DNA of 64,000 nucleotides, taken from Octopus vulgaris (Eukaryota). Of the stretch, positions 47,796 through 62,329 are shown in pieces (positions within the stretch are counted from its first letter, which is position 1; each line of letters starts with the position of its first letter). Made by a program: the position numbers and the translations under genes. Below the pieces are notes generated by a model. It was not told the DNA's origin, made no database searches, and saw only the letters and a list, made by a program, of their open reading frames with translations. The stretch lies in assembly GCA_951406725.2 (NCBI GenBank), contig OX597831.1, forward strand, positions 7,998,001 through 8,062,000, written 5' to 3'.

Positions 47796-47947
47796 CAGCA
47801 AAAACAATTAAGATTCAAGAGAATTCAAATGAATTCAAATGAATATGGTACTTAACTTCGATGCACCAAGATTCTTTATGGTATTAACCATAAAATTATG
47901 TGGGGTGATTATAACCAAGAAAAAAGCAACAAGAATGGATCAGTAGA

Positions 47948-48032
47948 TTAGTACAATTGTTTCATACTAAAAACATTTAATTTCAAGCTGCAAATATTAC
48001 AGCAAATATAATGTCAAGTATTCATCAGCTAA
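47948..48032 (-). ncRNA. complete type I hammerhead ribozyme motif
   Basis: Minus strand TTAG-CTGATGA-ATACT-(long stem-loop)-AGTAT-GAAA-CAATTG-TA-CTAA; all core nucleotides canonical, palindromic stem III, GUA triplet. Confidence 0.85.
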
Positions 48033-48117
48033 ATCACATATAGGTTTTCCATATATTCTTAGAGAGTGTAAATATCCTTATGAAGTTATAGGAGTGAGTT
48101 CCATGCTTTTTTCTTGG

Positions 48118-60019: not shown

Positions 60020-60545
60020 GAAAGACATTTCAAATTGTTAGAATGATTCCACCAAAAATGTCTTCGCCGCATTTTAAACATTAAATGGGGCCGCTTTACT
60101 CCAGACTCAGATGTCTTTCCATCTGGAAGCATCACTTCAATTAAATCAATGATTCTAAAAAATCAAATGAGATGGTCTGGCCATATTGTTCAATTGGCAG
60201 AAGAATGCACACCCAAACAGTTGTTTTATAGTGAGCTTGCAGAGGGGAAACGCAATTGGTTTAAACTTAAAACTAGGTTTAAGGACGATATGAAGACTAC
60301 TATGAAGTCCAAAGACCACAGAAACTCTTGCTTCAGATTGAGTTAGATGACAAACAAAACTGTGGAGTGGAGTAAAAGCTTTTGAGGAGGCCAGGATGAC
60401 ACATGCAAGACTCAAGAGAAATTTAAAGAAGAATGTTGCGATTGGGAAGGTGAATCTTAGTGACCTTTTTGTGTGCACGGTTTGTGACAGACCATGCCTT
60501 TCTTTTGCTGGGATCAAATCTCATTTGTGGACCCATGAAAAATGA
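60020..60545 (+). mobile_element. RTE LINE C-terminal fragment with C2H2-like tail
   Basis: FHQKCLRRILNIKW, MRWSGHIVQL..PKQLFYSELAEGKR..RFKDDMK, CTVCDRPCLS. Confidence 0.85.
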
Positions 60546-60926
60546 ACTTCCACCTATTATTCTGTCTATATATCTGTGCACACCTTTCAATGGCATGTAT
60601 GCCATAAAGTCTGTAAATCTAACGGAGGCCTCAAAGGACATTTTAAGATCCACAAAGATCAGAGCTTAACTGCTGCTCTTAGTTGTCCAAATCAGATATG
60701 CAATCTATGTGGGTGTCTTTTCAATATATTGTCTGGTTAAAAAAAAACATATCAGACGCCATGATGGATCTAAGGTGTAAATACTAGAGGTGGTTAGACT
60801 CTGCATAAGGAGTAGACAACCACCATATATATATATATATTGTTTTTCTCCTAATGAGATCAGTGAGTGTGTGCCACTTTAAAAGTAAAAGGCCTAGTGC
60901 CACCATCTCTACGCAACAGTTATTCC

Positions 60927-60966
60927 GTGCTGATGAAAAGAAATAACCTAGAAACCATTGGTTCAC
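60927..60966 (+). ncRNA. hammerhead motif with damaged stem II
   Basis: GTG-CTGATGA-AAAG-AAATAA-CCTA-GAAA-CCA-T-TGG-TT-CAC. Confidence 0.6.
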
Positions 60967-61345
60967 AGGTACCGTTTAGGGCTGAGTGAGGACATTAGCT
61001 CCCATGTTTGCGGTATAAGGATGCAGCTGTGTGTTGATAGCCAGCTGGAAAAAATGTTTTCCTAGGGCTAAAAAGGTAGTAACACTGTCCTAATTAGGAC
61101 TGCCACTTTATATTGGCAAATAGACTTTGTTCCCTTTCTCTCTCTCTCTCTTTATATGTATATATATATATATATATATGTGTGTGTATATTCAAAAGGC
61201 AAGACCGCTAGGTAGTCAGCTGTATGCTAGAAATAGATCACCAATGATCAAACTACAAAGAATGTTCTCTAGAGGAAAATTCAGCGAACACCAGAACAAT
61301 TAGGTGGGCAAGACAGATGAAAATTATATAAAAAAACAGAATTAC

Positions 61346-61421
61346 TCACAGACCGGCGGTTTCAACTATTAACAAAAGAATTACTTACTTAATCCAAATG
61401 TCCGTAGTTTCGTCAGTGTGA
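61346..61421 (-). ncRNA. complete type I hammerhead ribozyme motif
   Basis: Minus strand TCACA-CTGACGA-AACTA-(loop)-TAGTT-GAAA-CCG-C-CGG-TC-TGTGA; 5-bp stems I and II, GUC triplet. Confidence 0.85.
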
Positions 61422-61699
61422 TCGTTCAGACAAATGCAATTTGCAAAACTAACCCCAGCTTTCTGTGCCAAAACAGACACGTGTTTAATTTTATCGATTA
61501 CATTAGGGATAATTTCAAATGTCTTAGTTCCGGTGCGCTAAAAATTCCGGAAGCGAAAAACTGCAGTAAATAATTTACTGTGGTTAGTGCTGCCTATTAG
61601 AGAACATATTTATTTTAATATTTAAATAATGAGGGAGATAAATATTTCACAGTTGGAAGAAGGCAGTCTGGGTCAAATACGTCTTTTGAGTATGTAGAT

Positions 61700-61883
61700 G
61701 ATTTTGATCTCGTATAGAAGCAGTTTTTGAAGCTGAAGGTGGCTTTATTGAATAACATTATAGAAAAGAAGGTTTATTTTTATCCTCATAGCATTTTTTG
61801 ATAAATAAAGTTATTATCTGTTATTATATATCTGATTTTTTTTAATAAACATTAATCTGTCCTCAAATATCTTACACACCCTG
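61700..61883 (+). mobile_element. Tc1/mariner 3' end
   Basis: SRIEAVFEAEGGFIE* followed by a TIR-like CACACCCTG. Confidence 0.7.
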
Positions 61884-62329
61884 AGTATGTATGTATGTAT
61901 GTATGCATGTATGTATGTATGTATGTATGTATGTATGTATGTATGTATGTATGCATACATGCATGTATTTATGGCATTTGCAGAACTCTGATACATTGAA
62001 ATGACAGAAGAGTCCACCACCACCACTTGTATGTGTGTGTGTGTGTGTGTATAATTATAATCATAGCTATCACCTCATTAGCACATCATGTCAGATCATG
62101 GCTAGCATCATATTCCGAAATCAAAAGGAGCGCCATAAGACTTCGACTGATACAAAGAGGAACATGTCGCAACTCCAAAGGAAGATCCTGTAGGACAATA
62201 TTTTCATTCTCTATCACAAATAACATTATGCAATTCATACGATGTTATGTCTGTCGTCCAGTGTTACGTAATCCATGCTATGATAGGTGGAAATATGTCT
62301 TAACTCTACAGTCTTCAGATGTCATGATT

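Follow-up and report, generated by a model that had tools for sequence, protein, structure and literature searches.

Minimal hammerheads in the pseudo-long terminal repeats (pseudo-LTRs) of Penelope-like elements are of type I, with a larger helix II and a short, loopless stem I; palindromic positions in their helix III imply dimers, their families are full of compensatory changes, and the motifs are often single or on opposite strands 100–700 bp apart (Cervera and De la Pena 2014, PMC4209133, in the parts of that paper drawn on here). Insertions of Penelope-like elements are described, in the sections used of Craig et al. (2021, PMC8557442), as strongly 5′-truncated and biased to microsatellites, which are (TA)n for Naiads, and as having partial tandems and a neighboring truncated copy in inverse orientation. 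Non-LTR retrozymes, as far as the published passages used here describe them, are rich in AT, lack coding capacity and have a single type I hammerhead per unit, and occur as dimers to arrays and as dispersed copies; they coexist with Penelope-like elements, and in some families helix III is too weak for cleavage of the monomer. Here we report two families of hammerhead-bearing repeats, family 1 and family 2, which meet in a 64,000-nt stretch of the Octopus vulgaris genome (assembly GCA_951406725.2, contig OX597831.1, forward-strand positions 7,998,001–8,062,000; hereafter the window, numbered from its first letter).

We consider it probable that this stretch holds two independent insertions of two non-coding families, that their type I hammerheads have been kept by compensatory changes, and that their transcripts would self-cleave, probably as dimers. 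The features listed above for the minimal hammerheads of PMC4209133 are common to the motifs found here, and those listed for non-LTR retrozymes are likewise shared. Compared with the latter, the family 1 unit is longer (∼545 bp, against 150–450 bp for genomic repeats in the published passages), its helix II of 46–48 nt shows no recognisable loop–loop contact, and the genomic copies are mostly solo or in partial tandems, not in long arrays. The extra unpaired nucleotide between A9 and 10.1 mentioned in PMC4209133 is absent from our motifs. Judged by their letters and copies, both families are likely to be ordinary new members of the animal retrozyme or Penelope-type hammerhead repeats, and add two entries to the catalogue of such repeats; in the passages and listing returned by a literature search on octopus hammerhead retrozymes, no such family is described.

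Two repeats at one microsatellite

From the sequence, the locus reads as two unrelated non-coding repeats, each with a predicted hammerhead, lying tail to tail at one TA-rich microsatellite. The features are as follows, with their basis in brackets.

60826..60841, no strand: (TA)n microsatellite flanking the plus-strand copy 5′ (sequence)
60842..61133, plus strand: family 2 copy, 5′-truncated, unit ∼330–350 bp (genome search, 15-copy alignment)
60911..60983, plus strand: family 2 type I hammerhead with extended stem I, decayed here (Rfam HH9 alignment, 33-copy count, sequence)
60911–60914/60980–60983, plus strand: distal part of its stem I (fold)
60915–60919/60972–60976, plus strand: middle part of its stem I (fold)
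Within 60911..60983, plus strand: stem I internal loop UUAU/UA (fold)
60924–60929/60964–60969, plus strand: proximal part of its stem I (fold)
60930..60936, plus strand: core box CUGAUGA (sequence)
60937..60950, plus strand: weak helix II AAAG/CCUA with hexaloop AAAUAA (copies, HH9 alignment, 33-copy count)
60951..60963, plus strand: GAAA (from 60951), helix III ACCAUUGGU (60954–60962) and H17 = U (sequence)
Between 60963 and 60964, plus strand: predicted cut (hammerhead rule)
61134..61182, no strand: (CT)n(TA)n(TG)n tract, the meeting place of the 3′ ends of both copies (sequence)
61183..61648, minus strand: family 1 copy of 466 bp, unit positions 1–471, subfamily A (genome search, unit-trimer mapping)
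61346..61421, minus strand: intact type I hammerhead of family 1 (scan, covariation, cofold)
61410..61416, minus strand: core box CUGACGA (sequence)
61364..61409, minus strand: helix II, with proximal AACUA/UAGUU and a 36-nt imperfect distal hairpin (copies, consensuses)
61351..61363, minus strand: GAAA, helix III ACCGCCGGU and H17 = C (61351) (sequence)
Between 61351 and 61350, minus strand: predicted cut (hammerhead rule)

Read on the minus strand from 61421 to 61346, the family 1 motif is UCACA-CUGACGA-AACUA...UAGUU-GAAA-CCGCCGG-U-C-UGUGA, a complete type I layout with a stem I of 5 bp, a proximal stem II of 5 bp and the triplet GUC. This motif had been reported by an earlier note made from the sequence alone, and a mechanical type I scan of the window (stems ≥4/3/3) recovered the same motif at 5/5/4. 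The core has the letters expected of type I: CUGACGA, GAAA, an A...U pair at 15.1–16.1 and C17. The cleavage position predicted by the earlier note, between 61351 and 61350, agrees with the hammerhead rule, and the CT/TA tract that it placed between the elements lies at 61134–61182. Helix III of both motifs is, as it stated, a palindrome around one central base. Its view that such stems favor a dimeric fold fits PMC4209133, in the parts drawn on, and a cofold prediction of the minus motif gives a double-hammerhead dimer (−35.8 kcal/mol, against −30.0 kcal/mol, or 2 × −15.0, for the monomers).

The plus motif has fared less well. The letters noted at 60927–60966 are present, but helix II amounts to AAAG/CCUA with a 6-nt loop, and stem I is mismatched once in its proximal and once in its middle part, with one C.A mismatch. 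The two elements had also been described as young and as CpG-retaining islands. Both descriptions hold for the minus element, which is 4.5% from the consensus of subfamily A and has 13 CpG at an observed/expected ratio of 0.92; neither holds for the plus copy, which is ∼80% identical to its nearest relatives and has 4 CpG at a ratio of 0.31, in a window whose overall ratio is 0.37. Each is a solo copy of less than a full unit, and both are most likely dead insertions, the minus ribozyme sequence still intact and the plus one worn. A Pfam search with the two open frames beside the motifs found no family.

Covariation and insertion ends of family 1

A search with the 361 bases around the minus motif gave at least 48 matches in the octopus's own 2.8-Gb genome, 86–94% identical where near full length (2062 first-look candidates, of which 40 were scored). 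Short probes agreed: a 21-mer upstream of the ribozyme had 175 genome matches compared with none for a reversed control, and a 25-mer of distal helix II had 641 compared with 3. The unit is ∼545–553 bp long with one hammerhead each; its copies may be dispersed, partly tandem or arranged in tandem arrays. One locus, L060, has three units at a spacing of 544–547 bp, and another, L046, has two; a tandem period of 544–547 bp is seen at C14:47101156/47101703/47102247. No coding capacity is apparent: between stops, the open frames within the L060 tandem units reach at most 69 aa, and no long open frame was found adjoining family 1 copies. This includes reverse-transcriptase frames, in which the copies differ from the elements described in the parts used of PMC4209133.

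The predicted fold is kept by compensatory changes among the copies (62 for family 1 and 33 for family 2), as seen in the kind of paralogue alignment that the earlier note had proposed as a check. We collected 62 distinct family 1 copies, 20 of them through the similarity search and the remainder by an upstream anchor that is blind to the ribozyme; one 5′-truncated copy (L033) was excluded. Five core columns, C3, U4, G5, A6 and A9, are invariant. The named structure is paired in 94.0% of 1544 cells, compared with 22.9–40.9% when partners are slid, and eight pairs, four in stem I and four in stem II, are altered on both sides, in 96 cells compared with 2–26 for slid partners. None of 500 shuffles matched either the observed paired share or the covariation score. 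Stem I is 97.9% paired, with pair 30–106 found as UA in 44 copies, AU in 12 and CG in 1. In stem II, pair 43–87 is GC in 38, AU in 19 and UA in 2, and pair 45–85 is CG in 36 and UA in 21. In helix III, 97.8% of cells are paired, and no pair there is changed on both sides.

The copies form three subfamilies, with the following consensus letters (stem I 5′ strand, core box, proximal helix II, helix III, stem I 3′ strand).

Subfamily A (window copy): GAUCGCA, CUGACGA, AACUA..UAGUU, CCGCCGG, UGUGAUU
Subfamily C1: GAUUGUA, CUGAUGA, GGCC..GGCC, CCGAGG, UGCAAUU
Subfamily C2: GAAUGCA, CUGAUGA, AGCC..GGCC, CCGAGG, UGCAUUU

By hand count, 13 of 24 proximal stem positions differ between the subfamily consensuses, compared with roughly 13% of positions elsewhere in the unit; distal helix II is nearly uniform, with 1 of 37 positions differing (also a hand count). 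Family 1 is a clean natural case of a hammerhead with an 8–9 nt palindromic helix III and a long conserved helix II extension, and its subfamilies are ready-made compensatory mutants for a dimer-cleavage assay.

Several observations weigh against this reading of family 1. The description of the minus motif as fully canonical, given in the earlier note, does not hold: pair 10.1–11.1 of the window copy is A-U, not G-C, helix II carries the 36-nt extension, and neither this motif nor the more canonical sister subfamily scores with any Rfam hammerhead model (E ≤10). Across the family, pair 10.1–11.1 (42–88) is AU in 20 copies and GC in 16, and is unpaired in 25 of the 62, mostly as A.C; the G10.1–C11.1 pair of the minimal hammerheads in PMC4209133, as far as the parts used describe them, is confined to subfamily C1 (16 of the 62 copies), and subfamily C2 has A.C at this base of helix II. 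Energetically, the motif folds no better than its shuffles (z = −0.07), and the minimum-energy structure is lower than the hammerhead fold by 2.6 kcal/mol. The copies represent few subfamilies, so the independent compensatory events number only about six or seven. One of them, C-G to U-A at 31–105, could reflect two CpG decays and not selection; copy L030 keeps the CpG-bearing ancestor. CpG-type change does not account for U-A to A-U at 30–106 or for the three changes in stem II.

The ends of the copies bear on how they were inserted. Mapping 24 segments from 20 loci on a unit trimer, in ribozyme sense, placed the 3′ ends at unit positions 471–476 in 13 segments, at 27–38 in eight and elsewhere in three, with the 5′ ends scattered. 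Many segments cross the unit junction, extending to 1.7 units, and in six loci (L003, L007, L008, L009, L016 and L018) an inverted partial copy adjoins the segment. The 3′ ends of family 1 run into (TA)n or (CA)n; between them, both families end in (TA)n, (CA)n or (CT)n tracts, and partial tandems and inverted partial copies are common to both. By analogy with the described insertions, such anatomy is what Penelope-like elements and non-LTR retrozymes leave on insertion: the copies are 5′-truncated, lie at microsatellites, and form partial tandems with truncated neighbors in inverse orientation. The second common 3′ end of family 1 (27–38; L003, L006, L009, L017 and L019) lies ∼115 nt past the main one, which means that the unit end is followed by a 38-bp piece taken from its start. 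This piece may correspond to the 30–40-bp 'tail' described for Penelope-like insertions.

Some of the same features would also be seen if the repeats were DNA transposon derivatives, similar to miniature inverted-repeat transposable elements with long inverted repeats, and the hammerhead letters were incidental to them. Head-to-head inverted copies are present at several loci (L003, L007, L008 and L018), and the flanking DNA is rich in TA, which is also true of TA-targeting transposons. However, inverted truncated copies are also described for Penelope-like insertions (PMC8557442, in the sections used), and scattered 5′ ends, fixed 3′ ends and direct partial tandems of more than one unit are marks of reverse transcription. 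Furthermore, the stems covary, and the places where substitutions concentrate are those where pairing is kept. We therefore regard an origin from DNA transposons as improbable.

Family 2 and its weak helix II

With the 281 bases around the plus motif, we found at least 79 matches of 69–86% identity, with direct spacings of 330–351 bp and inverted partial copies (1369 candidates, 40 scored; 15 copies aligned). Two subfamilies can be told apart. The motif of 2a is CCUGUG-CUGAUGA-AGAGAAAUAACCCA-GAAA-CCAUGG-U-C-CGCAGG, and that of its younger sister 2b is UCUGUG-CUGAUGA-AGAGAAAUAACCCA-GAAA-UCGCGA-U-A-CACAGA, the 14-nt helix II stretch being identical in the two. The core boxes stand in type I order in the family as well as in its window copy.

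An intact 2a copy aligned end to end, and in ordinary order, with the amniote type I model Hammerhead_HH9 (Rfam RF02275) at 22.7 bits (E 0.0011 over 181 bases, 0.061 over 9.9 kb). All 77 model positions are covered in the same order, with much the same letters in stem I, the internal loop, GAAACC and GGUCC. Differences from HH9 lie in helix II, where three out of four model pairs are mismatches in the aligned copy and only two of the four positions pair family-wide; in helix III, an 8–9 nt palindrome without a real loop; and in the setting, which is a repeat and not a conserved intron. The count over 33 copies supports the same fold. Proximal stem I is 91.4% paired (52–98 is UA in 14 and CG in 9), middle stem I 85.9% (47–101 is GC in 12 and AU in 11; 46–102 is AU in 17 and GC in 7) and helix III 95.2% (83–89 is CG in 15 and UA in 13; 85–87 is AU in 20 and GC in 7). 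These comparisons of sequence place family 2 among the classical type I hammerheads of animals, with helix II as its weak part.

This assignment has difficulties of its own. The HH9 score of 22.7 is far under the gathering score of 52, and helix II is poor: G-C is found at two of the four positions, in 29 and 33 of the 33 copies, and the others are A.A in 33 of 33 and A.C in 24 of 33 (67–76). A weak helix II base has a precedent in HHR_Amex2 of the axolotl, which the published passages give as having a U.U mismatch, and mismatches in this helix (A.C at 10.1–11.1 in subfamily C2 of family 1; A.A and A.C in family 2) seem to be tolerated in families that spread. The core box is also variable in 2a. 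Among 23 copies with exact flanks it reads CCGAUGA in 10, CUGAUGA in eight, CCAAUGA in four and CCUAUGA in one, so part of this subfamily spread with a changed core. CUGAUGA and CCAAUGA are the two possible CpG-decay products of CCGAUGA; a perfect CUGAUGA in worn copies can therefore be a by-product of CpG decay.

As no ordinary hairpin is evident between CUGAUGA and GAAA, only the invariant 14-nt stretch, family 2 could instead be a rewired hammerhead, with the 3′ strand of helix II pairing upstream (GGUUAU-AUAACC) or downstream (UGGG-CCCA) and the chain open between A9 and 10.1. Indeed, the GGUUAU directly upstream of stem I in 2a is a perfect complement of AUAACC, and the downstream alternative, UGGG with CCCA, is paired in 90.8% of cells. 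In 2b, however, both G of GGUUAU are replaced by A, and the compensation is found in the downstream strand of extended stem I, where CCGUU has become UUGUU; AUAACC does not compensate. Pairs 46–102 and 47–101 covary, whereas 46–76 and 47–75 are unpaired in 19 and 13 of the 33 copies, and the HH9 alignment runs through the whole motif in ordinary order, taking UUAU/UAC for the internal loop of stem I and AAAUAA for loop II; the two G then belong to extended stem I. The upstream strand is ruled out as helix II by the unpaired 46–76 and 47–75 and the covarying extended stem I; the downstream strand is conserved without covariation, and is unneeded given the ordinary fold. We accordingly hold rewiring to be very improbable.

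Searches directed at other helix II arrangements gave little. Possible partners of the 14-nt stretch formed only weak, inconsistent duplexes, a scan of the window for the rewired layout was empty, as were simulated windows (mean 0.0), and the upstream-strand layout occurred in ∼296 kb of sampled sequence in only two copies, both of family 2. A pattern search for relatives with a longer helix II gave six matches, each with the 14-nt spacer. Because helix II has no evident hairpin, the non-circularly permuted SGC and CSG hammerheads (Eckert et al. 2023, PMC10085705, in the parts used) were considered for the plus motif. Conserved core boxes are shared with these types; unlike them, both of our motifs are in the ordinary C-G-S (type I) order, and the data favor a nested fold. 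Since the ordinary fold explains the family 2 data, worn copies that appear to have a 'missing helix II' or to be 'rewired' are best compared first with sister subfamilies and with regard to an extended stem I.

Proposed spread, Penelope-like elements and the supposed pairing of the motifs

The RNAs of both families are likely to be self-cleaving, as judged from their sequences. By analogy with the systems in the parts used of PMC4209133 and PMC7229834, transcription through tandem copies would yield RNAs that cleave at every hammerhead, two ribozymes would be joined by their palindromic helix III into a double hammerhead, and the unit-length RNA would probably be ligated into a circle. Such a circle could be copied by a resident Penelope-like reverse transcriptase at TA-rich targets, and this copying would give 5′-truncated insertions of more than unit length. 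When contigs of four sequencing runs of uncertain type were compared with the L060 unit and its flanks, a single joint was found, stepping back 545; this equals the tandem period and is therefore uninformative on circular RNA.

Penelope-like elements are abundant in the same genome. A search for GIY-YIG domains gave 148 scored matches among 6136 candidates, many of them in an open frame of 781 aa. A near-intact element at L123:430–5672 (also L124 and L125; copies 96–98% alike) has the 781-aa frame with a C-terminal GIY-YIG, an upstream frame of 359–479 aa, and 456-bp direct pseudo-LTRs that are 99.3% identical, with (TA)n at both ends. No CUGANGA box was found in the pseudo-LTRs of this element, which sets it apart from those described in the parts used of PMC4209133. 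An autonomous partner was not found, which also counts against the reading given above: neither family had a blastn match at E ≤0.001 in 30 GIY-YIG loci (3.3 kb each, of the 6136 candidates). Because an element of the L123 type has no CUGANGA box, and the two families share its (TA)n target and anatomy and keep their hammerheads, families 1 and 2 might be ribozyme-bearing parasites of Penelope-like elements that are themselves without a canonical hammerhead box, an idea we regard as tentative and rather unlikely. If it were true, the ribozyme stems, in which changes are about four times as frequent as elsewhere in the unit although pairing persists, would be a sign of selection on the RNA during its circular stage.

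Type I hammerheads in the style of family 1, with a long helix II and a palindromic or near-palindromic helix III of ≥8 nt, are present in four of the 30 GIY-YIG loci. Three loci, chosen only by GIY-YIG, have hammerhead-like motifs with a helix II of 26–54 nt, at L076 (−) 2572, L080 (+) 45 and L084 (−) 250; their helix III is a palindrome or near-palindrome, namely ACUCGAGU, ACACAUGU and AUUGGAACCAAU. The window itself contains a third type I-like motif, the one weaker site recovered by the mechanical scan, at 47948–48032 on the minus strand, with stems of 4/5/3 (UUAG-CUGAUGA-AUACU..AGUAU-GAAA-CAAUUG-U-A-CUAA). It lies within 47833–48052, a region that is 77% similar to a palindromic hammerhead repeat beside the GIY-YIG match in L081, whose motif has GUACU..AGUAC and CGAUCG.

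That either motif, or both, should resemble the hammerhead consensus by chance is highly improbable. No Rfam hammerhead was detected in the 64-kb window at gathering score, or in 60500–62000 even at E ≤10, and the fold energy is unremarkable, all of which would suit a chance match; by a rough analytic estimate a strict motif is expected by chance in ∼3 of 10,000 windows, so that very many windows, when scanned, will include some. In simulation, none of 300 first-order Markov sequences of 64 kb had a site as strict as the minus motif, and looser type I sites averaged 0.02 per sequence (n = 300). A third motif of this style lies in the window, and four more in the GIY-YIG loci. Moreover, each motif is found family-wide in a repeat with retroelement anatomy and with compensatory changes between subfamilies.

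The earlier note had treated the two motifs as a convergent pair, and they are 380 bp apart, convergent and both provided with a palindromic helix III; that they act as one unit, by mutual dimerization or as a processed pair of convergent transcripts, is nevertheless most improbable, as the plus-motif and minus-motif regions have no sequence similarity and belong to unrelated families, the RNAs of the two would come from different transcripts because they are on opposite strands, the helix III sequences ACCAUUGGU and ACCGCCGGU are not complementary to each other, and among the other copies examined no such pairing occurs, family 1 copies being paired with their own family. The simplest reading of the convergence is two separate insertions into one TA-rich target, rather than a two-ribozyme device.

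Outside both repeats, a (TGTA)n microsatellite at 61885–61980 gave spurious sub-threshold microRNA matches (mir-297, 69.6 bits against a gathering score of 90).

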